Source: an uncultured bacterium (GTDB lineage: Bacteria; Acidobacteriota; HRBIN11; JAKEFK01). From it: a stretch of DNA of 64,000 nt. Position 1 is the stretch's first letter. Every line of letters begins with the position of its first letter. This document shows positions 17,727 to 64,000 of the stretch, in pieces. Under the pieces are notes generated by a model. That model did no database searches. It was not told where the DNA came from and saw only the letters and a list, made by a program, of their open reading frames with translations. The position numbers and the translations under genes were made by a program. The stretch covers positions 352,001-416,000 of the forward strand of contig CAVZQN010000004.1 in the NCBI GenBank assembly GCA_963777505.1, in the 5' to 3' direction.

Positions 17727-19370
17727 CTAAGGACGTTTGATGCCGAGTTTGGCCATACGAGTTTCGAGGGTGGTTGGTTTCATGCCTAAAGTGTCTGCCG
17801 CTCCCTGTTTGCCGCGGATTTTCCATGATGCATTTTCCAGTACTCTTCGGATGTGTTGAATTTCCATCTCTTTCAAAGTGAAAGCTGTAGACGTTCCATT
17901 AGAAGAAGTCACTTTTGGAATTTCGATTTCGAGTTTTGATGAATTCGAAATAATCATCGCTCTCTCGATCGCATTTCTCAATTCGCGGACGTTCCCAGGC
18001 CAGGAGTACTCTATAAGAGCTTCCATGCACTTTTGTGAAATGCTCTCCACTTTTTTCCCAAGTTCATTGCAGAGTTCCTCCACAAATGTCCAGACTAGCA
18101 TTGGAATATCCTCACGGCGTTCACGCAGTGAAGGTACGTGTATTGGAAATACATTCAACCGGTAATACAAATCTTTTCGGAATGTTCCATCTTGAACAGC
18201 TTTTTCAAGGGATTGGTTTGTAGCCGCGATTACACGAACATCGATATGTATAGGTTTCGGATTCCCTAATCTTTCGATTTCCCTTTCTTGTAAAACACGA
18301 AGCAACTTGACCTGGGCTTCCATTGGAAGAGAGGTAATTTCATCCAAGAAAATTGTAGATGTGTCTGCTAGTTCAAAGCGTCCAATTTGACGCGAAAGCG
18401 CTCCTGTATAGGCTCCTTTTTCACGTCCAAACATTTCACTTTCAACTAAGGCAGCCGGAATTGCGCCGCAATTTACCCGAACCATCGGCTTGAGTCCGCG
18501 TGGGCTCATTCTATGAATCATTGAGGCAAAAACTTCTTTTCCTGTTCCGGTTTCTCCATGAAACAGAACGGTCGCATTCGTTGCCGCTACTTGCTCAGCT
18601 TTGGAGAAAGCTTCTCTAATTGCAGGACTCTGACAAATAATCTTTCGAGCCGGACTTGAGGCTTTCAATTCACTTCCGCTATGCGCATCATCATCCGTCT
18701 TCTGCTTTTTTAGCTTTTCAAGTTCCAGTAGGCATTGATCAAGTTTTTGCGCTTTCCTTCTCAGCAGGATTGAGCTGGAAAATACATGAGCTGCTACATT
18801 CATCAGAGGCATTATCTTTTCGGCAGAGACAATCTCCTTTGCTGCGGTAAGAGCAAAAATGCCGTAGATTCTGTCATCATCAAATAATGGAAATGCCAGA
18901 AGGAAATGATCCGGACCAAACTTGCGAAGAGTCTCTTTATCTATGATTGCTGCTTCCGGTAAATCATCGATTCGCGAATGCCTGAACTCATGTCCGCTTA
19001 AAAGCTGTTCAAACATCCATGGAAACGAATCTGTGGCAAAGAAAGGTTTCTCGTCAAGATGACCGTGTCCTGACGCAACAATAATGTGCGTACAAGCAAA
19101 CCTTTTGCTGCCTCCTTCTTCTTGTTGAAGCAAGACTGCTCGGTCAAGATGCAGAAAATCAAGGACACTCTTGATATTTGCTTCGATGGCGCTATCTAAA
19201 TCTTCCCAACCACAACGAGCCATCCTGGAAGAGATGTCCGAAATAAGTAGTTCGAAATCGGTGGCGGCAAAAGCTTCATTTTTGCGAATAAAATCAATTT
19301 TTTTCTGTTCACGACCTGCCGTAGAATAGTAATCAACAAACTTGAGACTCGCTTCGGAGTATTTCTGCAT
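17727..19370 (-). CDS. GAF-domain sigma-54-dependent transcriptional activator (FhlA/NifA-like)
   Basis: GETGTGKE Walker A, ESEMFGREKGAYTGA, IFLDEI, DLYYRLNVFPI, WPGNVRELRN, Fis-type HTH. Confidence 0.95.
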   Translation of the reverse strand: MQKYSEASLKFVDYYSTAGREQKKIDFIRKNEAFAATDFELLISDISSRMARCGWEDLDSAIEANIKSVLDFLHLDRAVLLQQEEGGSKRFACTHIIVASGHGHLDEKPFFATDSFPWMFEQLLSGHEFRHSRIDDLPEAAIIDKETLRKFGPDHFLLAFPLFDDDRIYGIFALTAAKEIVSAEKIMPLMNVAAHVFSSSILLRRKAQKLDQCLLELEKLKKQKTDDDAHSGSELKASSPARKIICQSPAIREAFSKAEQVAATNATVLFHGETGTGKEVFASMIHRMSPRGLKPMVRVNCGAIPAALVESEMFGREKGAYTGALSRQIGRFELADTSTIFLDEITSLPMEAQVKLLRVLQEREIERLGNPKPIHIDVRVIAATNQSLEKAVQDGTFRKDLYYRLNVFPIHVPSLRERREDIPMLVWTFVEELCNELGKKVESISQKCMEALIEYSWPGNVRELRNAIERAMIISNSSKLEIEIPKVTSSNGTSTAFTLKEMEIQHIRRVLENASWKIRGKQGAADTLGMKPTTLETRMAKLGIKRP

Positions 19371-19594
19371 TCATCCCTCCAAAAAATGGACAAAGGCGGG
19401 ATCTTTCCAAAACCATTGTGAGATGTGGTGCTCCCGTACCTACGATCGCTCCAAAGAAGGGTAACGGATGTGAACTTGATTGAATATTGGACCTTAGTCC
19501 AATCTGAGGGGAATGAGGTTTGATCAGAGCGAAATTGATAATAGGATTACAGGATATGCGGCGGGCTATAAAAACCCGCCGGGTTTGAATTGAA

Positions 19595-21827
19595 TTGATG
19601 GAAAAAGAGAATAGATCCGTTGATCGAAGTACTCAAAAACAGGAGAACAAAGGTTTTCTTGGCGGTCTCACAACATCTCAACAGATTTTGATCGGTCTCG
19701 TTGCAGGAGTTGTGGCGGGAATTTTTTTTGGCGAAAAAATATCCTTTTTGAACTGGCCTGCCAAAGTCTTCATCAGCCTTTTACAGGTCACAGTGCTGCC
19801 CTACATTGTAGGCTCGCTGATTGTGGGTATTGGCGAGAATACGGGAGAAAACGCGCGCAGACTCGCGATCTGGGGTGGCCTGGCCTTGTTGATCATTTGG
19901 ATTTTCACTCTTTTCATCGTGTTTTTAGTTCCATTTGCGCTGCCTCCTGACAAAGGTGGAGTTTTTTTCAGCGCTATTCCTAGTGACCAAACAAGCATTG
20001 ACTGGCTGGATCTTTATATTCCCACGAATCCTTTCCGTTCACTTGCGAACAATACTGTCCCGGCGGTCGTGATCTTTTCGATTCTTATCGGTATTTCATT
20101 AATTGATCTGCCTCGTAAAGAGAGGATCATTGAGCCACTAAAAGGGTTGAATGATGTATTAGCACGGGCCGCAAGTTTTCTTATCAAGCTGACTCCGTTT
20201 GGAATTTTTGCAGTAGCGGGACATGCCGCGGGTACGATGAGAGTGGATGAATTCCAACGGATCGAAGCTTTTTTCTTAAATTACATCGGACTCTGCCTGA
20301 TTCTGACGTTCTGGTTGCTGCCTGGTTTGGTTTCAGTGATTACGTCAATTCCCCACCGGCGAATTATTTCACTATACATGGATGCGGTTATAACTGCTTT
20401 TGTAACTTCAAGTGTGTTCGTGGTATTACCTCTGATTTCCGAAAGGACGAAACAATTATTAAAAGAAATTAACTTATCTCGCGATAGTGAACAGGATTCT
20501 GCGGATATTTTGATCCCAGCCTCCTTCAACTTTCCTGCTAGTCCAAAAATTCTGAGCCTCACTTTTATTTTGTTCGCTGGTTGGTTTGCAGGTACACCCA
20601 TTGCCATACATATGTATCCATTGGTTGCAAGTGTTGGTTTACTCAGCTTCTTTGGCAATCTCAATTCTGCCGTTCAATTTTTACTAAATCTATTGAGAAT
20701 GCCTGCAGATCTTTTTCAAATGTTCGTTGTTTCTGGAGTTGTGAATAGCCATGTTGGTAGTGGAGCTGGTGTGATGCATACGATGGCCGTTGCGGTTATT
20801 GGATCGTATCTAATGTCGCGCCGATTTCCAATGAATATTGGGAAATTACTCCGCTTTACTGGACTTACGATTCTGCTGGTAGCAGGATTCCTTTTTGCCA
20901 GTAGAGTGTTCCTTCAAGAGACTCTTCCCGATCCGAAAGAAAGTGCAGCAATTCTGGATAAGTTGAAGCTCTCCGGCGCGTGGGGGTCGTTGGCTGAAGT
21001 GAAAATTTATGATGAACCACAGGCGTCTCCATCTAAAGCACCAGTCAGAGAAGAACGATTGAATGAAATCGTTCGGCGTTCCGTTATTAGAGTCTGCTAT
21101 ATAGATGATGCATTGCCCTGGTGTTTCCGGAATTCACGTGGAGAATTGGTGGGATTTGATATTGGGATGGCCCATACTCTGGCTGTTCAACTTCAAGTTC
21201 GATTGGAACTCGTACCGGTAACAAGGGAGACAATGGACGAATCGCTGAATGCCGGTGTCTGTGACATCGTTATGTCGGGAATCAGGGCTACGCCTCAGCG
21301 CGCAAAGTTCATGAAGTTTTCCAAACCTTATGCCCAGGAGACCGCTGCATTTCTTGTTCGTGATCACCTCAGAGAAGAATTTTCACAACTATCGAAAATT
21401 CAAGAAATGAAATCACCGAGAATTGCCGTTCATAATATTCCCTCATGGATTGACCGTCTTCACAATACTTTTCCAAAAGCAAAAATTATCCCGGTTGAAT
21501 CGATAGAGCTTTTCGTGAATGACAGAAACAACCGTTTTGATGCGATGTTTACTGGATGGGAACGCGCGACGCCCTGGAGCCTTCTGCATCCGGAGCTTGC
21601 TCCTGCGATCCCTGAACCTGGGATGGGCGGATTTCCGTTGGCATATGCGGTTCCAAAATATGAAGAAGACCTGCTTTCATTAGTGAATACCTGGATTGAT
21701 GGTCGGATTTCCAGCGGCCTCATTCAGACAAAAAATGGATTATTGGGTCTATGGCCGTGATGCCAGCAGCCTGCGCGAGGCCCGATGGTGCATCGGTGCG
21801 AATGTTCTTGGATGGTGGAAGCCGTAA
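19595..21827 (+). CDS. Cation:dicarboxylate (DAACS/SDF) symporter-like protein fused to a C-terminal periplasmic amino-acid-binding domain
   Basis: LYIPTNPFRSLANN, LTPFGIFAV in the membrane domain; GELVGFDI..FSKPY in the SBP_bac_3 domain; frameshift near 21735, probable true stop at 21827. Confidence 0.85.
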
Positions 21828-21835: not shown

Positions 21836-23434
21836 CTAGTGATTGTCAGGGCGGAAGATGCCGAGTTTTGCCATCCGCGTTTCCAATGTAGTTGGTTTCA
21901 TTCCTAGAATTTCGGCCGCTCCTAGCTTGCCGCGGATTTTCCATGAAACACTTTCCAACACTTTGAGGATGTGTTGAATCTCCATTTCCTTCAGAGTTAC
22001 AACGACTGGAGATCCGATTGAAGTATTTACCTTGGGAATCTCAATATCAAGCTTTGGTAATTTTGAGATAATCATTGCCCTTTCAATTGTGTTTCTCAAT
22101 TCACGAACGTTACCTGGCCAGGAGTATTCCATAAGCCCTTCCATACTTTTGCTTGAAATGCTCTCCACTTTTTTCCCAAGTTCATTTGAGAGTTCATCGA
22201 CGAACGCCCAGGCAAGCAGTGGAATATCTTCTCGACGTTCCCTCAGGGGAGGTACATCAATGGGAAAAACATTTAAACGGTAATATAAATCCTGCCGGAA
22301 TTTTCCTTCCTGAACAGCTTTTTCCAAATCTTGATTGCTTGCGGCAATAACACGTACATCAACGTGTATGGGTTTGGGATTGCCTAATCGCTCAATTTCT
22401 TTCTCTTGTAATACTCGTAACAACTTTACCTGAGATTCGAGCGGAAGTTCTGTTATCTCATCCAAAAAGATAGTTGAAGAATGTGCAAGCTCGAAACGGC
22501 CGATCTGACTGGATAACGCTCCAGTATAAGCACCTTTTTCACGGCCGAATAATTCGCTTTCGACCAGTGCAGCAGGAATTGCGCCGCAATTTAATCGAAC
22601 CATAGTCCGCTTGGAACGTGCACTCAATTCATGAATCGCGGAAGCGATCATCTCCTTTCCGGTTCCGGTTTCTCCGGACAACAGAACGGTGGCATTCGTG
22701 GCAGCTACCTGCTTAACTTTTGCAAGCACTTCGGTCAAAGCCTTGCTTTGATAAACAATTTTTGCGGGAGATGAGCGAACATTTATCTCCTGGCGTAGAT
22801 ATACATTCTCACGCTCCAATTGAGTCTTCACTGTTTTAAGCTCTTGAAGCGTCTGCTGAAGTTTTTGTTCCGTTTTGTTCCGAAGCAGCGCACCCGAGAA
22901 TACTTGTGCTGCTACACGAAGACGAGGTGCGAGTTCCTCTGGCCAAATCAACTCCGCTGCAATCCCAAGGGCGAGAATCCCATAAACTCTACCGCCATCA
23001 AATAAAGGGATAGCCATCGCGGAATACTTTGGACCGAATCGTCGCAGAGTCTCTTTATCGATGGATGCTTCCTCCGGCAGATCATCGATCCGTGAGTATC
23101 TCGTTTCGCGGCCGCTTAAATGTTGTTCTAGCATCCATGGAAACGAATCTGTGGTGAGAAAAGGCTTTTCTTGAGGGCCGCATCCGGGCCGAACTCTGAG
23201 ATGCGTAAGGACAAACTTTCTGCTACCTGGCTCTGCTTCTTGAAATAATGCTGCCCGGTCAATGCAGAGATAGTCGAGAATCTTCTGCAGGCTGGTTTCG
23301 ATTACAACATCTAATTCTGTTGAATCGCAATGAACGAGCCTGGCGGAAATATCAGAAAGAAGAAATTCAAAATCGAGTCGCGACTTTTCATTGAGAGAAA
23401 TAGCGCGCTCATCTTCTTTAGACACAACAGACAT
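21836..23434 (-). CDS. Second GAF-domain sigma-54-dependent activator (paralogue of 17727-19370)
   Basis: Same AAA+ motifs including GAYTGA and a nearly identical HTH (LGMKPTTLETRMAKLGI). Confidence 0.95.
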   Translation of the reverse strand: MSVVSKEDERAISLNEKSRLDFEFLLSDISARLVHCDSTELDVVIETSLQKILDYLCIDRAALFQEAEPGSRKFVLTHLRVRPGCGPQEKPFLTTDSFPWMLEQHLSGRETRYSRIDDLPEEASIDKETLRRFGPKYSAMAIPLFDGGRVYGILALGIAAELIWPEELAPRLRVAAQVFSGALLRNKTEQKLQQTLQELKTVKTQLERENVYLRQEINVRSSPAKIVYQSKALTEVLAKVKQVAATNATVLLSGETGTGKEMIASAIHELSARSKRTMVRLNCGAIPAALVESELFGREKGAYTGALSSQIGRFELAHSSTIFLDEITELPLESQVKLLRVLQEKEIERLGNPKPIHVDVRVIAASNQDLEKAVQEGKFRQDLYYRLNVFPIDVPPLRERREDIPLLAWAFVDELSNELGKKVESISSKSMEGLMEYSWPGNVRELRNTIERAMIISKLPKLDIEIPKVNTSIGSPVVVTLKEMEIQHILKVLESVSWKIRGKLGAAEILGMKPTTLETRMAKLGIFRPDNH

Positions 23435-23490: not shown

Positions 23491-25161
23491 TTACGAATAA
23501 GTTCGAATGGCCGATTCAACGACGTCATGGACTGAAATGTGGCGACTGATTGTTCCAACACGTTGTTCCAACTGTTCAGCTCTCAAAATGTCACGAACAT
23601 TTGAACGGGTTTCCGCTAACTTTAACTCAATTCCTCTTTTGCTTAGCTCATCATTCAGCTTTCCAATCATGCGGGCTCCCGCTAAATCAACATTTGGCGA
23701 TGCGGAAAAATCACAAATCACGAATCGTGGCGATATCGAATTCACTTTTTCCAGAACAGCTTTTCTTACGGATTCAACATTGAAGTACAGCAGCGCAGAT
23801 TCTACGCGAAAAATTAAGACTCCTGGAATCACTTCATTATCGGGATTCCTTTCAATGTCTGAATAGCGATTCGTGCCTGGAATTCTTCCAAGGAACGCAA
23901 CATGGGGCCGTGAGGCTCGCGCAAGCAGCATTAAGATTGAAGCAATAGCCGCGAGCATGACGCCTTTTAGAATTCCGAAAATTAGCACACCTGCGAAAGC
24001 AACCATCGATACTCTGAACTCAAATTTGCTAACACGATAAAGATGCCGAAGGGCACTAATATTAATGAGGCCTTTTACAGCGATTAGCACAATGACTGCC
24101 AGAACCACACTTGGAAGATTGCGTAATAGACCGGTTAGAAAAAGTAAACAAAGTGCCAGAGTTATGGAAGTAAAGACAAGAGCCAATGGCGTTTTTGCGC
24201 CTGCTTTATCATTCACCATTGACTGCGAAAGACCACCGGCTACCGGATATCCCTGGCCCAATGATACGGCTAGATTTGCAGCGCCCAATCCAAGTAGCTC
24301 TTGCCGCGCATCAATTTCCTTTTCATGCCTGTCTGCAATTGCGCGAGCTGCCGAAATCCCCTCGATGTACGCAAGTAAGAAGCAGGCAAAGGCCAAAGGA
24401 ATCACGCCGTCTACATCGCGCAATCGAAGCGATGGCAAACCTAAGGGGGGCAAGCCTTGCGGTATTTCTCCAACGACCTTGATTCCGTGTTCCATCAGTG
24501 AAGTGGTGGATACGACCACAATCGATGCAACAACTAATAGGAGCGCCACCGGACGTCCTGGCAAGATTTTTTCTCCCAGTAATAAGAAAACCAGCGCAAC
24601 AAGCCCAAAACATAGTACTACAATGTTAGTACTACCTAATTGACTTAGGAGTGTCCCGACTTTTTCAAAGAAATGTTCACCGCCGCCAGGAACACCGAAT
24701 AGTTTTGGCAACTGGGTCATTGCAATCGTGATCGCTGCACCGGCTTTAAATCCCACGAGGATTGTTTCGCTGATAAAGCTGATCAAGGTGCTTAAACGCA
24801 ACGCCCATGCAACGATACACATGACAGCGACAACGAACGCTGTTAATCCAGCGATAGAAATCCATCGTGCCGGATCTCCGCCAGCCATGGTTGCCACAGT
24901 GACACCAACGAGCATTGAGATTGCAGAAGTAGGGCCAATAGCAAGTTGACGTGATGTGCCGAAGAGCGCATAAAACAGTCCGCCAATTAAATAGCAGTAA
25001 ATCCCATTTTGTGGTGGCAATCCCGCAAGTGATGCGTATGCGAGCGATACTGGAACTGCATAGGCAGCTAAAGTGATTCCAGCAATTAAATCTTTAGGTA
25101 ACCATTTGGGATTATATTCTTTGAGCCATTGTGCCGGTGGAAAGATGGAACGCAATGTCAT
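23491..25161 (-). CDS. sulP: SulP/SLC26 family anion transporter with STAS domain
   Basis: DLIAGITLAAYAVPVSLAYASLAGLPP, GTSRQLAIGPTS, C-terminal STAS. Confidence 0.95.
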   Translation of the reverse strand: MTLRSIFPPAQWLKEYNPKWLPKDLIAGITLAAYAVPVSLAYASLAGLPPQNGIYCYLIGGLFYALFGTSRQLAIGPTSAISMLVGVTVATMAGGDPARWISIAGLTAFVVAVMCIVAWALRLSTLISFISETILVGFKAGAAITIAMTQLPKLFGVPGGGEHFFEKVGTLLSQLGSTNIVVLCFGLVALVFLLLGEKILPGRPVALLLVVASIVVVSTTSLMEHGIKVVGEIPQGLPPLGLPSLRLRDVDGVIPLAFACFLLAYIEGISAARAIADRHEKEIDARQELLGLGAANLAVSLGQGYPVAGGLSQSMVNDKAGAKTPLALVFTSITLALCLLFLTGLLRNLPSVVLAVIVLIAVKGLINISALRHLYRVSKFEFRVSMVAFAGVLIFGILKGVMLAAIASILMLLARASRPHVAFLGRIPGTNRYSDIERNPDNEVIPGVLIFRVESALLYFNVESVRKAVLEKVNSISPRFVICDFSASPNVDLAGARMIGKLNDELSKRGIELKLAETRSNVRDILRAEQLEQRVGTISRHISVHDVVESAIRTYS

Positions 25162-25243: not shown

Positions 25244-26143
25244 TTATTCTTCTTCCACCGGACTCCAGGTCTTGTCCGGGTTGAAACGCTCCAGCTTCTT
25301 GAATTCCTCGGCTGTTTTTTCTCCAAAGTCTTTTTCGTAAACGACGCCGTCGTGGCTGACCATCAACGTCTTCACACCTGTAACACCGTATTCGGCGGGA
25401 GCAGCCACGAGGGCATAGCCCCCAATCATCGCTCCTTTCACAACAAAGTCCATTTGGCCGAGTGGTGCGGCAGGCCCTTGTCCCTTTAGTACTTTAAAGA
25501 AATAACCATGGTAGGGAAGTTCTTTGGTGTAGCCCTCTTCGATAGCCTTCGCCACATTTTCTCCAATAGGGCCGTCCCATTTGCCATCCGGATTTTTCCA
25601 CGCGAGTCCATCCTGTTTTCCAGGCGAACTAATGATGCGCTGAGCGTATTGGTTTACGTTGGATCCATCATGTTTTTCAAGTGCGTATTCTTCTTGTGCT
25701 TCCACAAAGCCGCGGCAGATTTCAATCGCATCCAGTTCATTGCCGCCAATGCGGCGATAGATGAGCTCCTGTCTTCCTGCTTTAGTGTCAAAGAACCATT
25801 TGCCGTTCTTCTTAATGATTGGAACTGAAAATGGCCAATCATCTTTGCCAACGAGTAAAAATGCGAGGTTTTTGTTTTTCGAATCCACTGAAACAGATTT
25901 TTTTTCGCGGGCGAGTTCAGCAAAAGTTTTGGCTATTTCTTCATCGCGTGGAGGTTCTGCGCTGATAACGAGGTCTTTGCCATCGGGACCGAAAAGTTTT
26001 TCCAATGCAACAACGTCAAATTTCTCTGCCGCTTCGACTAGAGCATCAGCTGCCTGCTCTGGAGTTGCGAAGGTGATCTGAGGGTTCGACGATGCCTGTT
26101 GTGCGAAGAGTATTTCTGTTGCTTGTAAGCAGAGTAAAAACAA
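25244..26143 (-). CDS. DUF2950 family exported protein
   Basis: FATPEQAADAL, RRIGGNELDAI, PYHGYFFKVL, PAEYGVTGVKT; true start probably ATG 26201 via a frameshift. Confidence 0.9.
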   Translation of the reverse strand: MFLLCLQATEILFAQQASSNPQITFATPEQAADALVEAAEKFDVVALEKLFGPDGKDLVISAEPPRDEEIAKTFAELAREKKSVSVDSKNKNLAFLLVGKDDWPFSVPIIKKNGKWFFDTKAGRQELIYRRIGGNELDAIEICRGFVEAQEEYALEKHDGSNVNQYAQRIISSPGKQDGLAWKNPDGKWDGPIGENVAKAIEEGYTKELPYHGYFFKVLKGQGPAAPLGQMDFVVKGAMIGGYALVAAPAEYGVTGVKTLMVSHDGVVYEKDFGEKTAEEFKKLERFNPDKTWSPVEEE

Positions 26144-26215
26144 TGGCGCAAAAAATACATGCGGATCTTGGAAGAAGGTTTTTCGAAGTTTGAAGTTTCA
26201 TATAGGTACTCCGAC

Positions 26216-27572: not shown

Positions 27573-28085
27573 TCATTTAACCAGCGGAACTTCCGATGCA
27601 ATTTGCAGATCAATCAGGAGATCGGTTTGATTTTCCAATTGTAACAATCGTGCCACAGTTTTTGGAGGTAGAACATTTTTTAACTCTACCATGTAGCGTT
27701 TTCTTAATGCGAATCTTTTATCCTGAAAATCCATTGCACGCATAATCAACTCGGCTGCTTTTTCATCCGTCATGGTCTGGTAATTTTTTGCATAGTCCTG
27801 GATCATTGCCAGCCGCTGATCGTTTATCTTGATCAACTCTTTTTCGTAATTGTCATAAATAGGCCAATACGCTTTGTTCTGTTCATCAGTAAACTGGACT
27901 GCCTTTTGTATTAGCGTGCGTTTGTTTGCTCGCAGATTGATCCGTTGTAGTTCGAGCGAAGCATCTTGATAGGTTTTCGCAGCGCTTTGATACGCCTTGA
28001 TTGCATCTTCGGTCGAAGTTTGAGCGTTGATTCTACAAAGAATTGCTGTGAAGACCACGAACGTTAGAATTAGGATTTTTTTCAT
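27573..28085 (-). CDS. Periplasmic helical protein (Spy/CpxP-like hypothetical)
   Basis: Signal peptide; FTDEQNKAYWPIYDNYE; helical; paralogue at 62755-63258. Confidence 0.7.
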   Translation of the reverse strand: MKKILILTFVVFTAILCRINAQTSTEDAIKAYQSAAKTYQDASLELQRINLRANKRTLIQKAVQFTDEQNKAYWPIYDNYEKELIKINDQRLAMIQDYAKNYQTMTDEKAAELIMRAMDFQDKRFALRKRYMVELKNVLPPKTVARLLQLENQTDLLIDLQIASEVPLVK

Positions 28086-30427: not shown

Positions 30428-30443
30428 AGCAAACTAGGTGCCA
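30428..30443 (-). promoter_or_regulatory. Sigma-54 promoter for the leftward operon
   Basis: Minus strand TGGCAC-CTAGT-TTGCT, 41 bp upstream of ATG 30387. Confidence 0.85.
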
Positions 30444-37062: not shown

Positions 37063-37076
37063 TAGTACACACCTAA

Positions 37077-51032: not shown

Positions 51033-51204
51033 AAATTTACATGTGAATTTGATCGATAAACGGCTACCAATATGACTCTGTTCATTTTCTTTAACGAATT
51101 AGGATTAGCAAGAAGTGAACGGCCAAAAGATTTGAAGAAAAGCATTCAGGATTATATGTATGACCCGCGTTATTGAAATGTTCTTCATTGTATTAGGGGG
51201 AAAA

Positions 51205-55563: not shown

Positions 55564-55623
55564 GTGGCAGTTGATCGTACTACAACAATAGTATTATAGT
55601 AAGTATAAACATAAGTCACTTTT

Positions 55624-56610
55624 TCAGTGGTTGGCTTGATTGGCCAAGGCATCACGGCATCTGTCAAACGCCTCGTTTAGTGCAGCTCCATCCACTGCAT
55701 CGTGAGCTCCGATGGCGATGATCCGCGTCCCTGGTTGTCGGCCATTCCATTCATCTCCAACTTCGATATCAACTCGCTTACCAACAACCTGAAGGATTAC
55801 GCGGCGGCCTGGTACTTCAGCCGCGTGAATCACACCTTTGCATCGGTAGATACTGGCCGGAAGCTTGCGCGCTGTTTGCCGAAGAAGTTCCAATGAAAGA
55901 AGCTCGTCCGTTTCGTAGCTCCACGTACTGAAGACCTGATGGTCATGTAGAGGTGTGCTGTCGAGACGTGATGGATCAAACCGGCCGACAGACAACAAAA
56001 TTTCCAGAGGCACATTTCCGCCGGATGCTTGAACGAGCCGATAACGATGGAATCTATCATCGAGCCATGCCTTGATTCGATCGATCTCATCCGGCGTAAC
56101 GAGATCGACCTTGTTCAGGATGAGCATATCTGCGAACGCCACCTGGCGAAGCTTCAGTTCCATCATCTCTGGTGCTGCGAATATCTGCTCCGCATCCACG
56201 ACGCACATGATGCTGTCTAATCTGATGCGGTCGCGCATGCCTTCGTCCAGAAACGCAAGCGCAATGCCGGACGGGTCGGCCACGCCACTGGCCTCAAGCA
56301 GGATGTATTCGGGCTGCTCGGGGCGTGCTATTACCTGGGTTACCGCAGCGACCAAATCGTCGCGGATATTGCAGCAGACACAGCCGTTGGCCAGATTGAT
56401 GACATCCCCCTCGCTTTCGACTCCGACAACAAGCTCGGCATCGATGTTGATCGAACCGAAGTCGTTTACCAACACCGCGACCCGAAGGCCGTGATCGCCG
56501 GCAAGAATGCGATTCAACAGCGTTGTCTTGCCAGCGCCAAGAAAGCCGGTAAGCACCGTCAAGGGGATCGGCGCCGGTTTGTCCTTAGGGGAATAGTTAA
56601 AGACTTGCAT
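55624..56610 (-). CDS. COG0523/CobW-family G3E GTPase metallochaperone
   Basis: LTGFLGAGKTTLL, VLVNDFG, NGCVCC, EASGVADP, NKVD, CobW_C domain. Confidence 0.95.
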   Translation of the reverse strand: MQVFNYSPKDKPAPIPLTVLTGFLGAGKTTLLNRILAGDHGLRVAVLVNDFGSINIDAELVVGVESEGDVINLANGCVCCNIRDDLVAAVTQVIARPEQPEYILLEASGVADPSGIALAFLDEGMRDRIRLDSIMCVVDAEQIFAAPEMMELKLRQVAFADMLILNKVDLVTPDEIDRIKAWLDDRFHRYRLVQASGGNVPLEILLSVGRFDPSRLDSTPLHDHQVFSTWSYETDELLSLELLRQTARKLPASIYRCKGVIHAAEVPGRRVILQVVGKRVDIEVGDEWNGRQPGTRIIAIGAHDAVDGAALNEAFDRCRDALANQANH

Positions 56611-57067
56611 TCGAACTTCCTTTCGCGGCGTCGTCTGGCTGCCCTGCGATCATGCTATCGCCAACTTGGGCGAGTTGATACTTATAGGTGCAGATGGCGA
56701 AGAGGGTCGCCACGAGAAGAACGATTTTCCAAAGGACAAAGTCGAGTTCAGCACCGCGATCGAACAGGATGACCACAGCGAGGGCACTGACAAAAAACAG
56801 ACTTAGCTCACCTATAAACACTAGCAGGTGTCCCAGGACAACGTTGCGCTGAAACTGCAATTTGGGCCGCAGTCGAAACGCAAACCAATGAGCAACTTGC
56901 ATGAGAATGACCACGATGGTGGTCAGAACGAAGTCCTTTGAGCTGGCGCCTTCCGTACTCGGGGAGAGCAGCCGCCGGTATATGGGAAGTCCATTCCACA
57001 TAATGGCCTGCGATCCCGCCGCCTCTGTGAGAATCAAACACCAAAAGAGGATTTTGTTGCGCGTCAC
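56597..57067 (-). CDS. Hypothetical 4-TM membrane protein
   Basis: Four hydrophobic segments; packed between the MBL and CobW genes. Confidence 0.7.
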   Translation of the reverse strand: MTRNKILFWCLILTEAAGSQAIMWNGLPIYRRLLSPSTEGASSKDFVLTTIVVILMQVAHWFAFRLRPKLQFQRNVVLGHLLVFIGELSLFFVSALAVVILFDRGAELDFVLWKIVLLVATLFAICTYKYQLAQVGDSMIAGQPDDAAKGSSNASL

Positions 57068-57072
57068 CGGCT

Positions 57073-58613
57073 TTATTGTTCCTCAAGTTTGTCGATGATT
57101 TGCTGGATTTTCTCCTGCTCGGCTGTGAGTTTTGCCTTTGTCTCGCGGAGCTTTTTCTGGATGACTTGGCGGACATCAATCTTGAAGCCGCTCGGGAAAT
57201 TGCGCTGCGGTTCGCGATACATGTCGGACGGATAGTACTTCTTTGGGTCAATCTCCCGTTCGCGGACGGCTGGCTCCTGCATGTCGGCGACCGTATGCCG
57301 AGGATTCGGGAATCTGACCTCCAGATTCGAAGGACTCAGATCGAACAGGCCGACGGCATCTCTCGGACTCGGGCGAGCCATGTTGCCGGCTTCAGGGATC
57401 GCAGCCTTGCGAGTCCAAACAGCATCTTTGGTGACGTTGACGACCACTATGTCGGGCGCACCGAATTGGAAGAATCCGCTGTAATGGATGCGAATCCCGG
57501 CTAGGATTTCCGGGATCAATTCCTCGTCGTAACTCAGGTGTGTGACCATCGCGAGTCGCGGCTGAATCTTATTGAACATGTACCCGATCGCGTAATGTGG
57601 GCTGTGCGCCTGATCGATCGTCGTGTTAACAATGATGGGCGGCATGCCGAACTTCAACGCCTGGAGATTGGCTGTGTCAGGCTGGACTTCAGTGACGAAC
57701 ACGTCTACGCCCTTGGCGAGTTCCATCGAGAGCTCGTCCGGCCGCCCGTCACCGGTCCAAACGAATGATAGTCCGTTCCAATCGAGCCGATAGGCCGAGG
57801 CGCCGTCCTTGGTGTGCGATCGCCGCCAGTGGCGGATGACTACGCCATCCTTGTCGTAGCAAACCCCATTGTCGTCGCGGAAATCGAATTCGTTCACCTC
57901 GACTTCGTATCCGTCGCCAATCGGGCTGGCGTTGAAAGAGTCTGTGTGCCAATGAGTCATCATTTTCATGCCCTCGATCATCGTCTTGATGCCATCCTTT
58001 GGTGTCCGGCCCGATGGTCCATGGACGCGCAACGGCTTCCAGCGCCCCATCCACGGAGCGAAGGCGAAAAGGTAGGGAAGGTCCGCGTAGTGATCGACAT
58101 GGAGATGGGTGAAGAAAATATCGTTAACCGTCTGCAACGGCACAGCCATCGCGATGATGTTCCGCATGCAGCCTGAGCCGAAATCAAAGAAAAATCGCTT
58201 GCCGTTACCCAGTTCGACCATGATGCAGGTGCCTGCCTGCGCGCGTGTGACCGGGATCGGCGTACTGCCAATGAAGGAGATCCGCATTTCATCGGGGCCG
58301 ATCCGCTCTTGACCCGGGTAATAGATGTTGTTGCTGACGAGATAGGGAGTGGGCCGATAATACGCCGGTAAAGTGATTCCGCCGCCCGGCACGCCACCGT
58401 AAGGGTTCTGTGCTTTTATTTCGCCTGGTGTCGTTTCAGCCGCCTGCGACGCCGACGCAGCACCTACCCGTTATTATTGCGGCGGCTCCAGCGAGCACCC
58501 ACTTTCTTGAGCGCATCGCGTCGACTCATCGTCGGTCGCTGACCAGCATCAGCTTGATTACTCACAGTCTGTTCTTTGCTTGCCTCATCTTTCGGAAATC
58601 GATCGTTACTCAT
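57073..58613 (-). CDS. Tat-exported MBL-fold (RNase Z/AtsA-like, GntH-like) metallohydrolase; frameshift in the leader
   Basis: THLHVDH motif, WTGDG, AHS..TH; ATG 58613 with GGAGG and an SRRDALK twin-arginine motif upstream of ORF 57073-58392. Confidence 0.85.
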
Positions 58614-58893
58614 TCGTGCCCTCCTTCTTCTTTATCTGGTGCTGTTTTGTTAGCTCCCGGTCATCCGATATCCCGAGTTCGCAATGTTGACTTGAATCTG
58701 TTTTGCGGGCGCAGTCAATATTGCCTGCGACGTGTAAATCGTACCATCTGGAAACGTTGAAAAAATAATGTTCAGACTCACTGAATCTTTCGGGCTATCA
58801 ATAACAGTAAAAATGACTGACGATCGGATCGCCGTTTACATCAAATTGTCCGGCGCATCCTGAGTCTTTCAATCTCAAAATGAGTGAATACCC

Positions 58894-59997
58894 CTAGAAA
58901 CTCCAACCGAAAGATGTGTTGACGCTAAGGTTATTGTTGATTCCTCCGGGCGGTGGTCTGTTATCGTAGTTATTTGTGAAACCAATTTTCCAATAGAAGT
59001 CCATAACCATGTCCCATTTCCAATCGAAATCGGCATCGATTCGGAGTCGCCCTGGATCAGACAGACTGGGAAATACAAGAACATTTGTATTGAGCGATGA
59101 GCCACGAAAACGGTACGTTGAGAAAACTAAACCTCCTAAAGCCTCGGCATTATTTCTGTCTTGTTCATCAATAGAATAATTCTCATTCGTGTAAACCAGG
59201 CCACCAAGAACCCCCCAGATGGTGCGGTTCGTTTCGATAAGACTTCTCACGACACCTCCTCCAACTGTCGATCTCAAATCGAGATCCAGTTGCTTGTCAC
59301 TGAGTAGAGCACCTAAAACAAACGCTTCCCACCTTTTGTTTAAGACTCGCTCCGCCGTGATTTGCAATTCTTGCCGTGATGTTCTCTCTGCACCCGGTTC
59401 CCTGCTGAACTGAGAGGAAAAATTCAGATTCCCGGAATACTTCGGTTTCTGAAATGAACCGGAGAAATTGATATTACTTTGAGTCCTGCTATTCGCGGAT
59501 GTATATCCAGCACCTGCATCTATCGATATGTTCATACGAGAAAGAAAAGAACGCCCAATCACTCGAATGGAAATCACATTGGTGATTGGCAAATCGATTT
59601 GTCCACCACTGTTCAGAACAATACGAAGTGTAGAATCCGGAATCTCATAATTCAGATCGGCCGGAATAACGCCAACGTAAAAGTCATTGTCCTTAGTCTG
59701 AAATTCGTATTGCGCAATACTCTGAACGCGAATGACCTTCTCCCAATCGAGTTTCATAGTGTCAGCTACACGATCGGACTTGAAATGAAGAATCCCAAAT
59801 ACCATTTTCTTAATTTCCCCTGTATTCCGGTCGCCATTTTTCATAATAACAACATCATTGTTGTGCTCCAGCTTGATGGTTTCATCTTTCTTTTCAGTCT
59901 GTGCGATTAACAAGGAGGGTATAAACAAAAAATAAAGTGTGAATATTGACGAAATGACGCGGGAAATTGCCATGAATTTCATCTGCTCGGAATGCAT
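58894..59997 (-). CDS. DUF481-family outer membrane beta-barrel
   Basis: DVVIMKNGDRNTGEIK N-domain, LDLDLRSTVGGG, terminal SFGWSF. Confidence 0.85.
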   Translation of the reverse strand: MHSEQMKFMAISRVISSIFTLYFLFIPSLLIAQTEKKDETIKLEHNNDVVIMKNGDRNTGEIKKMVFGILHFKSDRVADTMKLDWEKVIRVQSIAQYEFQTKDNDFYVGVIPADLNYEIPDSTLRIVLNSGGQIDLPITNVISIRVIGRSFLSRMNISIDAGAGYTSANSRTQSNINFSGSFQKPKYSGNLNFSSQFSREPGAERTSRQELQITAERVLNKRWEAFVLGALLSDKQLDLDLRSTVGGGVVRSLIETNRTIWGVLGGLVYTNENYSIDEQDRNNAEALGGLVFSTYRFRGSSLNTNVLVFPSLSDPGRLRIDADFDWKWDMVMDFYWKIGFTNNYDNRPPPGGINNNLSVNTSFGWSF

Positions 59998-60001
59998 TCT
60001 T

Positions 60002-60268
60002 CTACCGGCGGAAGTACAAAATGTACCCGTCTGCTTGATACAGTTCCCAACCTTGAGCTGCTTGATCGTTCACAATTTTTTCAATTGTTTTCATTCGACC
60101 CTGTTCGGCATCGGACTGAGTCCGCAGTTCTGTCATTCCTGTCAGGGAAATTACTTGATATTGGTAACGTTTGGCGCTTTCTACCGGACGGTTCAAGAAC
60201 CCACCAAGGAGGAAAGCACTGAACACGAGAATCAAAAGTATGGAATTCTTCTGAATTATGCTTTTCAT
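60002..60268 (-). CDS. Small DUF4177-like protein
   Basis: RYQYQV..NDQAAQGWEL..LYFRR. Confidence 0.65.
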   Translation of the reverse strand: MKSIIQKNSILLILVFSAFLLGGFLNRPVESAKRYQYQVISLTGMTELRTQSDAEQGRMKTIEKIVNDQAAQGWELYQADGYILYFRR

Positions 60269-60387
60269 AGTTCGCTTCTCTCTTTTTTGTTACGTATCGG
60301 ATAGACAGCTCACTTTCGGCGCAGTTCTTGAATGTAGACTGCGTAAGAATTACACACACAAATCGAACAGCTCAGGCAGTACCTGAA

Positions 60388-61146
60388 CTACAATACAGTG
60401 ACCTGATAACCGTTGCTTACACGCAAATAATACGTTTCCCCGCAGACCTGGTAGTTTTGACCGTTAACGTTTTTTTCCTGGCAACCTGAAGGAAGCGTCG
60501 TGATAATCGCTCCGGCAGGTGGTGGAACGACTTGATATACAACCTGGCCTTCGTTATAAGCCTGCGTATAAAAGGCGTTATCATGATAATAGTATGATGA
60601 TCCACTCACTACAACTGTAGTAGATTGTGTTGGTGGTTTGGCCAGCATCGTTCCAATTGCAATGCCACCGATAACACCTGCTGCAACCTTCCAGCCTTCG
60701 TAGTCATTGTAGTATTCACCACGGTATGCACCGCCATATCTGCCGTCTACCTCACCAGATGCATAGACTCCTCCTCTGCGCCCTGCAGCCGCTACTCCTT
60801 CTTCACCAACAGCAACTGCTCCACGGCGTGTAACAGCAGCGGCTCCGTCTTCACCGGCAACAGCAACGCCACGGGGTCCTCTCGCTACGTCGACATCTTC
60901 GCCTGAATAGTTACGATTTACATTTGTATCGCGGTTCACATTCACATTTGTATTTCGGTTTACATTTGTATTCCGATTTACATTCGTGTTCCTATTTGAC
61001 CGTCGAACAGAGGAACCTGATGTGGATCGTGTCGATGAAGTTCGGGCAGATTTCTGACCTCCGCCACCTGATCTCCTTTGTGCCTCAGCAAAGGAAACTT
61101 CCATGAAAACAAAACCAATGATTAGAATTGAAAGTAGCTTATTCAT
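60388..61146 (-). CDS. Secreted low-complexity protein (NRNTNV repeats; DUF6515-like C-terminus)
   Basis: Signal peptide, NRNTNV x3, GxxGxAV repeats, YQVVPPPAGAIITTLP. Confidence 0.75.
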   Translation of the reverse strand: MNKLLSILIIGFVFMEVSFAEAQRRSGGGGQKSARTSSTRSTSGSSVRRSNRNTNVNRNTNVNRNTNVNVNRDTNVNRNYSGEDVDVARGPRGVAVAGEDGAAAVTRRGAVAVGEEGVAAAGRRGGVYASGEVDGRYGGAYRGEYYNDYEGWKVAAGVIGGIAIGTMLAKPPTQSTTVVVSGSSYYYHDNAFYTQAYNEGQVVYQVVPPPAGAIITTLPSGCQEKNVNGQNYQVCGETYYLRVSNGYQVTVL

Positions 61147-61961
61147 TGCTGATTCTCCTGTGTTTGTGTATTTGCTCCCGCAGGCTTCTCTTCCATTGGT
61201 ACACGGCCAATGATTTTTATTTTGTTATAGTCTGCCGGCGGTTGATGGGAAAACTTGTTTTCTGCAAGCTGCGGCGCAAAATTCCAATTTAGGTATGTTA
61301 TCGCAATTTTAGGCGATCCGTAATCCAACTTATAAGTGAGTTCTAATTTGCATGGCAAAGCTTGATCGCCAGCCGCAATCCAGATTCTCCAATCCAGGAT
61401 AGGATTCTGCAACGCGAGTTGATGACAAGACTTGCCATCAACTTTGTCGAGTTTCACGTATTTTCCCGTTGTGTCCGGACCAATAAAAGCCTCGTAAGGT
61501 GTGCTATAGAAAATGTCGGCCACCGGTGTCGGAACATTGAGTGTGTCGCTTATGTAATCCAGGGCTTCATCAATGGTTGGCGGCGTCTTCGTGCGCGCGT
61601 AAACCTTTTCTTTGTCAGATTGTAAAGTTATAGTCTTACCATCGTACCAAAGTAACAAATCACGGGACTTATCGGGAGCTTGACTGATGACATGACTCCA
61701 GAATCCATCCGGACGCCTGACGGCAATTTCTCGTGAAACTTTAGCCTGCACCTTTTTCCCTGATTCACGAATCTTGTCATGAACCTCCTTTGTGTTTAAA
61801 GTGAAACTCTTTGCGTTCGCAAGAAAATCGCTCATCTGATGCAACAATTTATCCGCTTTTTCATCTACATTTTGGGTTGGCTTCGTTTGTTGTGCAGTAG
61901 TAACATTTGCGACAAGAGATGCCGCACAAATGAATACTAAAAGAAAAGGAAGTTTTTTCAT
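61143..61961 (-). CDS. DUF2092 periplasmic protein (LolA-like)
   Basis: ADKLLHQMSDFL, VRRPD, WYDGKTITL, PPTIDEAL, DWRIWI. Confidence 0.85.
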   Translation of the reverse strand: MKKLPFLLVFICAASLVANVTTAQQTKPTQNVDEKADKLLHQMSDFLANAKSFTLNTKEVHDKIRESGKKVQAKVSREIAVRRPDGFWSHVISQAPDKSRDLLLWYDGKTITLQSDKEKVYARTKTPPTIDEALDYISDTLNVPTPVADIFYSTPYEAFIGPDTTGKYVKLDKVDGKSCHQLALQNPILDWRIWIAAGDQALPCKLELTYKLDYGSPKIAITYLNWNFAPQLAENKFSHQPPADYNKIKIIGRVPMEEKPAGANTQTQENQQ

Positions 61962-61995
61962 TATCTAATCCTCCATTCTATATTCTCATCACCAT

Positions 61996-62721
61996 TCAGG
62001 TTTTTGATTGATTTGCTATCAGCCACCGTTCGTGATGTTTTCGAAGAGAAGCTATCGCTTCATCTGCGCTGTTTAAACACACAGCAATTGAAATATCGTC
62101 AGGATTGGCTAACTGTGGTGCGCTGCTGAGCATGTGTTTACTTGCCCATTCAACGAGATCACTCCACATCTTTCCGATGAAGATCAGAGGGGTATCTTTT
62201 ATGTGGCGTACTTGAAGAAGTTGCCACACCATTGCAGCCTCAAGTAAAGTACCGATTCCTCCGGGAGTTACAACAAAAGCGTCAGAAGCTAAAACAAAAT
62301 GATGAAGGCGTGTAAAAAATGTTTGGTGCTGATAGACTTTCTGAACAAATGGATTGACTTCTTGTTCAAATGGCAGATCAATCCTGATTCCAATGGAAGC
62401 ATTCTGCGCTGCGGAAGTTGCGCCTTCGTTCGCGGCAAGCATCAAACCAGGGCCGCCTCCAGTAACTACATCGCATCCCATTTCAGTTAAGGCTCCTGCC
62501 AATCTTTTTACTTCTTCAAATGCAAACGTATCCGGTCCCATTCTTGCTGATCCAAAAATCGTGACGCGGTATCGTTCTTGTTTCGATGGACGCAGCCGCG
62601 TTAGATTGTTAACAATCTCCCACAGACCAAGAACAGAATTTACGAGGACTTGCTTGACTCCGTCTTCATCAGAAAGGCTCACCATTTGTGAACTGCTTTG
62701 TGCTGAATCATCAGCTTTCAT
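61996..62721 (-). CDS. LOG-family (lysine decarboxylase-like Rossmann) protein
   Basis: VTIFGSAR, VTGGGPGLMLAANEGA, LPFEQ..NPF, PGGIGTLLE. Confidence 0.92.
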   Translation of the reverse strand: MKADDSAQSSSQMVSLSDEDGVKQVLVNSVLGLWEIVNNLTRLRPSKQERYRVTIFGSARMGPDTFAFEEVKRLAGALTEMGCDVVTGGGPGLMLAANEGATSAAQNASIGIRIDLPFEQEVNPFVQKVYQHQTFFTRLHHFVLASDAFVVTPGGIGTLLEAAMVWQLLQVRHIKDTPLIFIGKMWSDLVEWASKHMLSSAPQLANPDDISIAVCLNSADEAIASLRKHHERWLIANQSKT

Positions 62722-62754
62722 CTGTAAACTCCAATCAGTTTCACAAATTCATTT

Positions 62755-63258
62755 CTATAACGGAATTTGTGCAGCGATTTGTGCTTCGATTTGCATATCA
62801 ATCTGATTTTCGAGCAGCAGCAAACGAAGCGCTTGTTTCGCTGTAAGCACTGTGCCGAGCTCCTTGACGTAGGCTCTTTTCATTTCTTGTCTCTGCAATT
62901 GAACCTGCATAACGCGATTGATCAGTTCTGTCGCCTTTTCAGCGGAAAGTCCGGATTGTTGATTCACATAATCGGCTATAAGTGCCAACCGTGTATCGTT
63001 GATTTTTTTCACTTCTGCTTCGTATTTGTCGTAAATCGGCCAGAACGCGCGGGATTGTTCAGATGTTACCGAAATAGCTTTCTTGATAATTTCTCGTTTT
63101 TGGTTTCTTAAGTTAGATCGTTGCAACTGCTGAACAGCATCGTTATATGCTTGAACAGCATTGTTGTAATTCTGCATAGTGTCATCAGATGAAGTTTGGG
63201 CGTCAATGCATGCGATAAAAATTAAAAGGCCACAAATAAGAGTTATGATCTGTTTCAC
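62755..63258 (-). CDS. Periplasmic helical protein, paralogue of 27573-28085
   Basis: AFWPIYDKYE..LLLLENQID..IAAQIPL. Confidence 0.75.
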   Translation of the reverse strand: MKQIITLICGLLIFIACIDAQTSSDDTMQNYNNAVQAYNDAVQQLQRSNLRNQKREIIKKAISVTSEQSRAFWPIYDKYEAEVKKINDTRLALIADYVNQQSGLSAEKATELINRVMQVQLQRQEMKRAYVKELGTVLTAKQALRLLLLENQIDMQIEAQIAAQIPL

Positions 63259-63284
63259 TCTTCAGCCTCCTCGTTTGACTGTTG

Positions 63285-64000
63285 TTACGTCTTCCAAATC
63301 GTGACTAAAGCCTGCGCGATTATGATTTTTATGATGATTGCTCCGGGGTACACCATTGCATATGAGACTTCAACGCGTTCAGAGGGCACAGCTTTTGAAG
63401 CGTACGAGATAATTGCCGCATTGCCAGCAAGACCAGATGTGATTCCAAAAAGATCATCAAATGGGATGCGCATTATAAAATGGCCGATCAAAAGGGGGAT
63501 GAATACAAGCGGAATGAGAATAATTGCAGCCATAATTACCAGACTCATTCCTGTTAATTGAAGTGTGGTTACAAACTTTTCACCTGAGCTCATTCCAATC
63601 TGTGCAAGAAAAAGCGAAACACCAAAATTACGAAGAATCACATTCGCAGAAAGCGGCATAGTCCAGGATATCGGCCCGGTGCGGCCCAATCTTCCAAGGA
63701 TCAACGCAACAATGAGTACTCCAGCGGGGATGCCAAGTTTCAGGCTTCCAATCCCTGGAAGTGGAATCGGAATAATGCTGACAAAAACTCCAAGCACCAT
63801 TCCGATACCAAGTGCAACATAGCTAAATTCGGTAGTACTTCGAATTGAATCTCCGAAAAATTTTCGAATTGTTTCAAAATGTTGGCGGTCACTTAACAAT
63901 CCAATGCGATCACCAAATTCAATAGTTACATCTGAATTTGCAATTAGATCGCTATCTCCGCGCCGAACCTGGACAACGTTTGCTTCTATTCCATCCGGAA
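63285..64000 (-). CDS. YidE/YbjL (AspT-like) transporter with TrkA_C domain, 5' part outside the window
   Basis: VRRGD..GDRI TrkA_C end, IPIPLPG..LKLG..GVLIVALILG, YAMVYP. Confidence 0.88.
   Translation of the reverse strand, partial: PDGIEANVVQVRRGDSDLIANSDVTIEFGDRIGLLSDRQHFETIRKFFGDSIRSTTEFSYVALGIGMVLGVFVSIIPIPLPGIGSLKLGIPAGVLIVALILGRLGRTGPISWTMPLSANVILRNFGVSLFLAQIGMSSGEKFVTTLQLTGMSLVIMAAIILIPLVFIPLLIGHFIMRIPFDDLFGITSGLAGNAAIISYASKAVPSERVEVSYAMVYPGAIIIKIIIAQALVTIWKT

Follow-up and report, generated by a model that had tools for sequence, protein, structure and literature searches.

A conserved, apparently sigma-54-controlled gene set of soil Acidobacteriota encoding a predicted exported glutaminase, often joined to a DcaP-type porin

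Acidobacteriota are abundant soil bacteria, mostly uncultured, whose way of coping with pH swings is poorly explained. Among described acid defences, the closest counterparts of the locus analysed here are the glutamine acid-resistance systems (AR2_Q), namely YbaS with GadC in Escherichia coli and the gadBC-glsA-hdeA and gadB-glsA-gadC arrangements of Brucella and Bacteroides. The YbaS enzyme is described as acid-active at pH 4–6 within this system and as dependent on GadC (PMC6250119), and aspartase-dependent acid survival is known from Yersinia (review PMC4773443). The locus lies in a window of 64,000 nucleotides from an uncultured acidobacterium (contig CAVZQN010000004.1, positions 352,001 to 416,000), where a large gene cluster (17,727–64,000) has its core at 37.3–46.4 kb and encodes two glutaminases of the same glutaminase A family, and presumably of the same chemistry, as those of AR2_Q. 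For comparison, a genome scan around the glutaminase was carried out, in which the best 80 of 547 confirmed matches yielded 75 loci, 73 of them titled Acidobacteriota or Vicinamibacteria; neighbour counts refer to genes within 10 kb of the glutaminase and are lower bounds, as 18 loci were shorter than 19 kb. In contrast to the cytoplasmic AR2_Q enzyme, the glutaminases of these loci carry a putative leader peptide and are often fused to a porin, their control would be exerted by sigma-54 and a GAF activator, and linked genes for GadB, GadC or YbaT were present neither in the window nor in any of the 75 loci.

The fusion is a single reading frame in which a leader peptide is followed by a glutaminase domain and then by a DcaP domain. 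Among the matches listed, 69 of 120 homologues were likewise full-length fusions of 701–735 aa with both domains, at 61–74% identity, deriving from JGI, ENA and NCBI sources. An assembly artefact was considered and rejected, as the fusion recurs in these homologues and as short-read sources with varied linkers contain it too. In 20 of the 75 loci, a glutaminase runs straight into a DcaP barrel, nine of them without a break and the remainder interrupted, and in the mapped loci the fusion occurs together with a free glutaminase; the second glutaminase of the window, split there by one base, is intact in the nearest relative locus (L006).

Both glutaminases passed the PRK12356 cut-off for glutaminase A (410.6 and 413.3 bits against 395), and the closest solved structure was E. 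coli YbaS (1u60, E = 9e-78), with which the SxxK motif and other active-site and substrate-binding positions align; we take these residues to have the catalytic and binding roles of their YbaS counterparts. A hydrophobic leader was detected in 90 of the 93 glutaminase N-termini of the loci, where it contains basic, hydrophobic and AxA parts, and in 62 of 68 fusion homologues, whereas a leader of this kind is missing from E. coli YbaS, the alignment beginning at its residue 4. These calls come from a heuristic for hydrophobicity over 10 residues with visual inspection, without a negative control or signal-peptide predictor; by eye, 6 of 12 more distant glutaminase cluster representatives also look exported. 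In a monomer model of the fusion (mean pLDDT 71, pTM 0.51), which does not fix the relative placing of the domains, the first part matches YbaS and residues 353–723 match Acinetobacter baumannii DcaP (6EUS; Z 31, root-mean-square deviation 3.0, 332 aligned residues, 20% identity), with a 16-stranded barrel as in 6EUS and a DcaP Pfam match above cut-off. As the DcaP N-terminus is described as periplasmic and its pore as anion-selective (10.1101/306035), the enzyme would hang beneath the pore, on the periplasmic side.

It could be argued that the regulon is real and the fusion a neutral by-product of a tandem dcaP–glsA duplication, most of the 46 kb being a patchwork island without shared function, which we consider very unlikely. 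The two dcaP copies of the window, stand-alone and fused, are indeed 98% identical in DNA, duplicated gene ends flank inserted segments, the free glutaminase persists alongside the fusion, and in a quick tree of 53 DcaP barrels, each covering more than 300 query residues, the fused barrels were scattered (9 changes, clustering no greater than in shuffles). However, fusions are frequent, divergent and varied in their linkers, and in a FastTree tree of 114 rows the fused glutaminases fell into three groups, one of 18 (3 changes against 19.5 when shuffled), which points to a repeated origin and to retention. The fusion thus appears to have arisen more than once and to have been kept, a pattern that fits repeated fusion combined with exchange of barrel halves between neighbouring copies.

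Regarding control, the original prediction had proposed three -24/-12 promoters, and the three boxes were recovered against 0.46 expected, a count reached in 1 of 100 shuffles; each of them is intergenic. The enhancer motif that it had described as shared, the palindrome CTCCG-N6-CGGAG, did not exceed chance inside the window (sites at 30496, 30516 and 37125 against 1.13 expected, equalled in 8 of 100 shuffles), where a weight matrix placed strong sites solely at 30495, 30515 and 37124, but it was strongly supported across genomes. Of 69 loci with 500 bp available 5′ of the operon, the enhancer was present in 38, a -24/-12 box in 46, and the two together in 33, with a spacing of 75–173 bp, mostly 99–108; the pair occurred in 0.36% of 2747 random segments and in none of 2070 shuffles. 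The enhancer pattern was taken from the window and the promoter pattern was loosened from TTGC to NTGC, as used in GC-rich relatives, after inspection of the loci, so the promoter count is partly post hoc; the strict TTGC pattern gave 7 matches in the 75 loci against 4 expected. The short core TCCG-N6-CGGA alone was mildly enriched (110 against 92 shuffled, other spacings 45–76), and the enhancer signal of the loci resides in position, not in the overall abundance of this core. Over all 75 loci, 74 enhancer–promoter pairs were found, and the first gene 3′ of them was most often the DUF3011 barrel (31), the usual first operon gene elsewhere, followed by the ABM-fold protein (5), serine deaminase (4), DUF2254 and sortase-like proteins (3 each), amidohydrolase and activator (2 each), single cases of aspartase, glutaminase and three others, and 19 genes without family, 13 of which are small outer-membrane barrels by eye.

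The two GAF activators were also confirmed by Pfam/NCBIfam, the GAF match being above cut-off in activator 2 (E = 2e-7) and below it in activator 1 (E = 1e-3). Their AAA domain with a GAFTGA-type loop, their helix-turn-helix (HTH) domain and the -24/-12 targets with an upstream palindrome are the features of sigma-54 enhancer-binding proteins. FhlA was the top NCBIfam match, with scores of 370.7 and 344.2 bits for the two activators against a whole-protein cut-off of 830, and the sole full-length matches to activator 2 in the plasmid collection were annotated as HyfR/FhlA (37–38% identity over 98%). The HTH tail is the same in both, activator matches were present in 20 of the 75 loci, and the neighbouring activators are likely binders of the palindrome because 13 of 18 C-terminally aligned rows share the PTTLE-R helix of the window pair; activator 2 is probably autoregulated, as the last gene of the leftward unit. 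A single regulon over 17.7–64 kb, as first proposed, was not upheld: direct sigma-54 control appears supported for three transcription units spanning about 21.8–43.3 kb, the stretch to which the promoter evidence had already been confined. No strong enhancer was found past 37144 in the weight-matrix scan of the window, and a terminator-like hairpin with a U run (43323–43354, +, z -4.9) follows the second glutaminase. The genes at 43.4–50.4 kb may be reached by read-through or be separately controlled, and the promoter of the rightmost leftward run lies outside the window. Another strong hairpin (37075–37117, z -6.2), likely a terminator or repeat element, stands between DUF4136 and the core enhancer.

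Co-occurrence of the genes elsewhere, another expectation of the original prediction, held for the core, with DcaP in 69, amidohydrolase in 65 and the DUF3011 barrel in 56 of the 75 loci; a shared activator family, a common enhancer and sigma-54 promoters link these genes. Other recurring neighbours, named through NCBIfam on representatives, are absent from the window cluster: asparaginase II (AnsB, 15 loci), AspT (13), aspartate 4-decarboxylase (AsdA, 10), serine deaminase (SdaA, 9) and aspartase (AspA, 8). At least one of AsdA, AnsB, AspA and SdaA was present in 25 loci, and AnsB, AspT and AsdA stood together in 10. MscS (8), carbonic anhydrase (4) and aquaporin (4) also recurred. The gene set thus appears to be conserved in soil Acidobacteriota, under sigma-54 control and exporting its glutaminase. 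A search for the operon in plasmids of cultured Proteobacteria was negative, glutaminase matches being below 47% identity, with one amidohydrolase match and no core in the loci opened. Genes for a Zn-ribbon protein, CobW, a metallo-beta-lactamase fold, DUF4177, DUF6515 and DUF2092 were found in none of the 75 loci within 10 kb, a test weakened by their lying 12–20 kb away in the window.

Our preferred reading, to which we give a probability of about 0.5, is that of an acid defence by deamidation in the periplasm, switched on by an FhlA-like activator. The FhlA/HyfR-like GAF activator would bind CTCCG-N6-CGGAG about 100–135 bp 5′ of sigma-54 promoters and turn on an amino-acid-dependent defence acting largely in the periplasm. 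Glutamine would enter via the porins, the exported YbaS-type glutaminase, free or under a DcaP trimer, would split it into glutamate and ammonia, and glutamate would leave via the anion-selective pore or be imported by a carrier. The GadC antiporter would be unneeded because the exported enzyme, already in the acidified compartment, meets low pH and glutamine directly. In relatives, the regulon would add asparaginase II, aspartase, serine deaminase, and aspartate decarboxylase with its antiporter; the window would have lost aspA and ansB and carry malic enzyme in their place. Binding of the motif by the activator, localisation, acid as the inducing signal, substrate flow and a pH benefit are the steps that we infer here. 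Of the earlier idea of pH or dicarboxylate homeostasis, the first part finds some support, as ammonia-releasing and proton-consuming enzymes recur and the wider regulon appears rich in them, whereas the malate/dicarboxylate part fared poorly (malic enzyme in 3 and Dcu in 1 of the 75 loci).

Several points weigh against acid defence. Glutamine hydrolysis brings net proton uptake only near or below pH 4.2–4.5 (the glutamate side chain has a pKa of about 4.2), so that the pH benefit at mild acidity is small; the periplasm can fall into this range, the cytoplasm seldom. Acid markers were rare among the neighbour representatives scanned (81, plus 96 of the 193 remaining clusters): one cyclopropane synthase, one Na+/H+ exchanger and one K+ channel were seen, and HdeA/B, urease and the Gad family were absent from this set. 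Both activators read GAYTGA instead of GAFTGA, and the 75 loci, nearly all of one lineage, are non-independent. A Bacteroides regulon with nearly the same enzymes has been connected with (p)ppGpp and limiting amino acids rather than with acid (PMC12596196). Finally, the motif precedes genes for a major facilitator superfamily transporter, Pta and AckA, with or without pyruvate formate-lyase (PFL), in three loci, and PFL/Pta/AckA genes lie in 11 of the 75, both of which point to anoxia.

Those last signs suit another explanation, which we hold tentatively and find somewhat unlikely, that of an anoxia or fermentation regulon whose FhlA-like activator would sense formate or organic acids and whose amino-acid catabolism would serve energy. 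Serine would be converted via pyruvate to acetate or formate with ATP, asparagine via aspartate to fumarate with the help of Dcu, and aspartate/alanine antiport would generate proton-motive force, ammonia being a by-product and pH relief secondary. The affinity of the activators to FhlA and HyfR points this way, together with Pta in 10, AckA in 9, PFL in 8 and an extra F1 beta subunit in 10 of the 75 loci, a PFL activase, and the Dcu–aspA–ansB order of L006. The DUF3300–DUF2950 pair, described as co-localised and as induced in rhizobial symbiosis transcriptomes (PMC4653623), accompanies pta and ackA in Eleftheria, and pta, ppk2 and SulP in Caballeronia. However, the invariant core of exported glutaminase, amidohydrolase and porins would yield no ATP, and the fermentation genes are confined to those 11 loci. 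A formate dehydrogenase adjoining the operon found no support, as the molybdoenzyme near three loci matched a PhsA-like family best in NCBIfam, below cut-off. Fermentation and acid defence are not mutually exclusive. The F1 beta genes, mostly with epsilon, end just 5′ of the operon in 10 loci (L011, L014, L016, L030, L040, L049, L050, L056, L067 and L068), often with SulP next.

The exported amidohydrolase bears on a further alternative. Its model is a TIM barrel (pLDDT 82) with invariant metal ligands; a close structural match from which to assign a substrate was sought, and fold searches returned generic amidohydrolase_2 barrels at no more than 19% identity. A distant relative, P0271, is a 672-aa exported amidohydrolase–glutaminase fusion (hhalign 96.6%), for which reason the enzyme probably has a related amide or lactam as its substrate. 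Periplasmic ATP-independent 5-oxoprolinases are described, with Sec export in Alcaligenes (PMC13274462, PMC8453981). The amidohydrolase could be such a 5-oxoprolinase-like enzyme in a system for nitrogen or amino-acid scavenging, in which periplasmic glutaminase, asparaginase and amidohydrolase would strip ammonia while glutamate and aspartate are taken up by the SDF carrier with its solute-binding protein (SBP) domain and by Dcu; P0271 would agree with this role. We give scavenging a poor chance. Sigma-54 often governs nitrogen scavenging, yet the activator carries a GAF instead of a receiver domain, the scanned neighbour representatives included no ammonium transporter, PII or glutamine synthetase, and the pair of aspartate decarboxylase and antiporter sends nitrogen out as alanine. 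In its favour, E. coli AnsB, AspA and serine deaminases are reported to serve nitrogen assimilation (PMC10936423), Acinetobacter is reported to need DcaP porins for carboxylate uptake (10.1101/2025.07.02.662759), and the Bacteroides counterpart mentioned above works under amino-acid limitation.

Returning to acid defence, a narrower version of it can be formulated, in which the anion-selective porin itself would take the part of GadC at the outer membrane (glutamine in, glutamate out, ammonia kept in the periplasm) with the glutaminase physically attached at its periplasmic mouth, the amidohydrolase would handle glutamate or pyroglutamate, and a novel GAF activator sensing pH or organic acids would bind CTCCG-N6-CGGAG; taken as a whole it seems doubtful to us, and rather unlikely.

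The features of the cluster, named by Pfam/NCBIfam profile matches, are collected in Table 1; Rfam and tRNA scans of the window gave no match. Besides the activators, the original identifications of the SDF–SBP fusion, SulP, DUF2950, DUF3300, the resistance-nodulation-division (RND) pump, both DcaP porins, both glutaminases, DUF3011, Dcu, malic enzyme, DUF481 and DUF2092 were confirmed in this way. A YidE/AspT carrier is present, in part, since the window end cuts its gene, and DUF4136 is present, split by a frameshift. The Spy likeness of two proteins was not confirmed: of six members of the small helical protein family, one gave an LTXXQ match that fell below the cut-off (E = 0.007), and a profile of the six sequences had no PDB match. 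The fusion open reading frame, the exported amidohydrolase and the aspA remnant had been absent from the first list.

Table 1. Features of the cluster, in window coordinates; fractions give the number of the 75 loci with a homologue.
Position	Strand	Feature	Remarks
17727–19370	-	GAF-AAA-HTH sigma-54 activator 1	FhlA/HyfR-like, GAYTGA loop
19595–21826	+	SDF symporter (dicarboxylate/amino-acid) fused to SBP_bac_3 family-3 solute-binding domain	5/75
21836–23434	-	GAF-AAA-HTH sigma-54 activator 2	last gene of leftward unit
23491–25161	-	SulP-STAS anion transporter	12/75
25244–27478	-	DUF3300–DUF2950 exported pair	3/75
27573–28085	-	Small exported helical protein	48% identical to 62755–63258; 4/75
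28101–30387	-	Large exported protein (~760 aa)	no Pfam family; first gene of leftward unit
30429–30443	-	-24/-12 promoter, leftward unit	also conserved in L006
30496–30531	.	Two tandem palindromes CTCCG-N6-CGGAG	20 bp apart, between divergent promoters
30646–30660	+	-24/-12 promoter, RND unit	also conserved in L006
30703–37062	+	RND efflux set (adaptor, permease, outer-membrane factor) and DUF4136	
37125–37140	.	Palindrome CTCCG-N6-CGGAG	134 bp 5′ of core promoter; weaker second site near 37144
37259–37273	+	-24/-12 promoter, core operon	also conserved in L006
37287–37613	+	Small ABM-fold protein	18/75
37634–38758	+	Exported amidohydrolase_2 TIM-barrel metalloenzyme	invariant HxH; 65/75
38763–40073	+	Stand-alone DcaP-family porin	DcaP in 69/75
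40070–42262	+	Signal peptide, YbaS-type glutaminase A (~28–345), short linker, DcaP barrel (353–723)	
42265–43309	+	Second exported glutaminase A	one extra base parts signal peptide and mature portion
43413–44915	+	DUF3011 domain with beta-barrel-like C-terminal part	56/75
44925–46259	+	Dcu anaerobic C4-dicarboxylate/aspartate carrier	1/75
46300–46406	+	5′ remnant of aspartase aspA	aspA and ansB intact at this place in L006
46568–50392	+	Accessory run: small outer-membrane barrel, 88-aa protein, esterase, NAD-malic enzyme	no own enhancer
51205–52659	+	MltF-like lytic transglycosylase with solute-binding domain	possible accessory; 3/75
58894–64000	-	YidE-type carrier (partial), helical, LOG-like, DUF2092, DUF6515, DUF4177, DUF481	

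The DUF3011 protein, which has no PDB match, may be a porin. L006 is colinear with the window over 29.1–46.4 kb, and since intact aspA and ansB follow Dcu there, Dcu appears to be an aspartate partner. Within the accessory run, homologues of the small outer-membrane barrel were found in 12 loci, of the 88-aa protein in 1, and of the esterase and the malic enzyme in 3 each. The large exported protein has homologues, mostly of 720–830 aa, in 13 of the 75 loci, the RND permease in 2–3, DUF481 in 43 (mostly at ~30% identity) and YidE/AspT-type carriers in 9–11. The partial carrier at the window end scored higher to YidE-type PRK03818 than to AspT TIGR03802, the cut-off of which was passed by a locus homologue of another carrier type.

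No sigma-54 box was found for the SDF–SBP fusion gene. A second type of palindrome, TTGGAC-N4-GTCCAA, was observed 5′ of the pair formed by this gene and activator 1 (19487–19502) and 5′ of a histone-like gene (50590–50605), as a possible site for another regulator. DUF3300 and DUF2950 were also adjacent in all four plasmid loci opened, and E. coli yacH is described as CpxR-regulated and listed under protamine resistance, not acid (PMC9600279). A -24/-12 box lies 50 bp 5′ of a rhizobial DUF3300 gene (L004:18410–18425) with no enhancer palindrome, which was likewise not found 5′ of any of four proteobacterial DUF3300 genes; sigma-54 control of the pair may thus extend beyond Acidobacteriota. 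Left of the first boundary, HupE/UreJ and two DUF3604 genes were found (55–1444 and 14303–17464). On a Sinorhizobium plasmid (L004:13500–20813), DUF3604, HupE and a peptidyl-prolyl isomerase gene are divergent from DUF3300–DUF2950, for which reason the island may reach further to the left.

Single-base frameshifts interrupt at least seven genes of the span, among them SDF–SBP near 21735 (in an A run), the large exported protein near 30060, the RND permease near 33350 and DUF4136 near 36740. These are likely long-read indel errors, because genes are also split left of the span and L006 breaks at other places. At 2273–7952, TonB-dependent receptor and Ser/Thr kinase–PD40 genes lie in several pieces, by indel errors or decay. 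The region at 55.6–58.9 kb is an unrelated insert (55567–58852, 54% GC, between 34-bp direct repeats) with CobW, a membrane protein and an RNase Z-fold enzyme homologous to the PNGM-1 metallo-beta-lactamase (E = 7e-59), the twin-arginine-like leader of which is separated from the rest by a frameshift. Two further copies of the malic enzyme 3′ end (50310–50395) lie at 51094–51179 (99%, after the histone-like gene) and 46445–46523 (74%, after the aspA remnant) and resemble scars of repeated insertion. The histone-like gene itself (50658–50975) encodes a 105-aa Lys/Arg/Ala-rich histone H1-like protein made of 42-bp repeats, and a 38-nt match links 47052–47089, inside the small barrel gene, with 47604–47641, at the end of the 88-aa gene.

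The locus offers a concrete operon, activator and binding-site candidate for how Acidobacteriota cope with pH. It would place a textbook cytoplasmic enzyme in the periplasm, attached to a diffusion porin on the periplasmic side, and provides a setting for little-known families such as the exported amidohydrolase, the DUF3011 barrel, DUF481, the ABM-fold protein and the 760-aa exported protein. If the acid-defence proposal is true, it would work without the inner-membrane antiporter used by known systems. No account of the fusion, the operon or the motif was found in the literature searched, from which subscription journals and supplements were excluded.

Compared with described regulators, the E. 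coli FhlA and HyfR regulons are alike in having a GAF-AAA-HTH activator and -24/-12 promoters with an upstream palindrome. They differ in that the activators here have one GAF domain and reach at best 371 bits against the cut-off of 830, and in that the targets are deamidases and porins instead of formate hydrogenlyase; the FhlA site is presumably a different palindrome from CTCCG-N6-CGGAG. The aspartate systems (AspA of Yersinia, AsdA–AspT, and ansB–aspA–dcuA/B of E. coli) have the same enzymes as the operon of relatives, where they are accessory modules; in the window, aspA is a remnant, and ansB and asdA are missing from the cluster. As for DcaP of Acinetobacter (6EUS), the 16-stranded barrel and the periplasmic N-terminus are shared, but at 20% identity and with the periplasmic coiled coil replaced here by a whole enzyme, and the neighbours differ, since four proteobacterial plasmid DcaP loci were opened and lacked the operon. 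The SigH-1 regulon of Bacteroides thetaiotaomicron likewise includes glutaminase, aspartate decarboxylase, aspartase and asparaginase II; it differs in its extracytoplasmic function sigma factor, its glutamate decarboxylase and its link to (p)ppGpp and amino-acid limitation, and no porin fusion is described in section 28 of that report (PMC12596196). In conclusion, the system is a real and conserved, apparently undescribed variant of the stress or catabolic systems that depend on amino acids; its enzyme–porin fusion is unusual, and its function is one that we infer from its genes.

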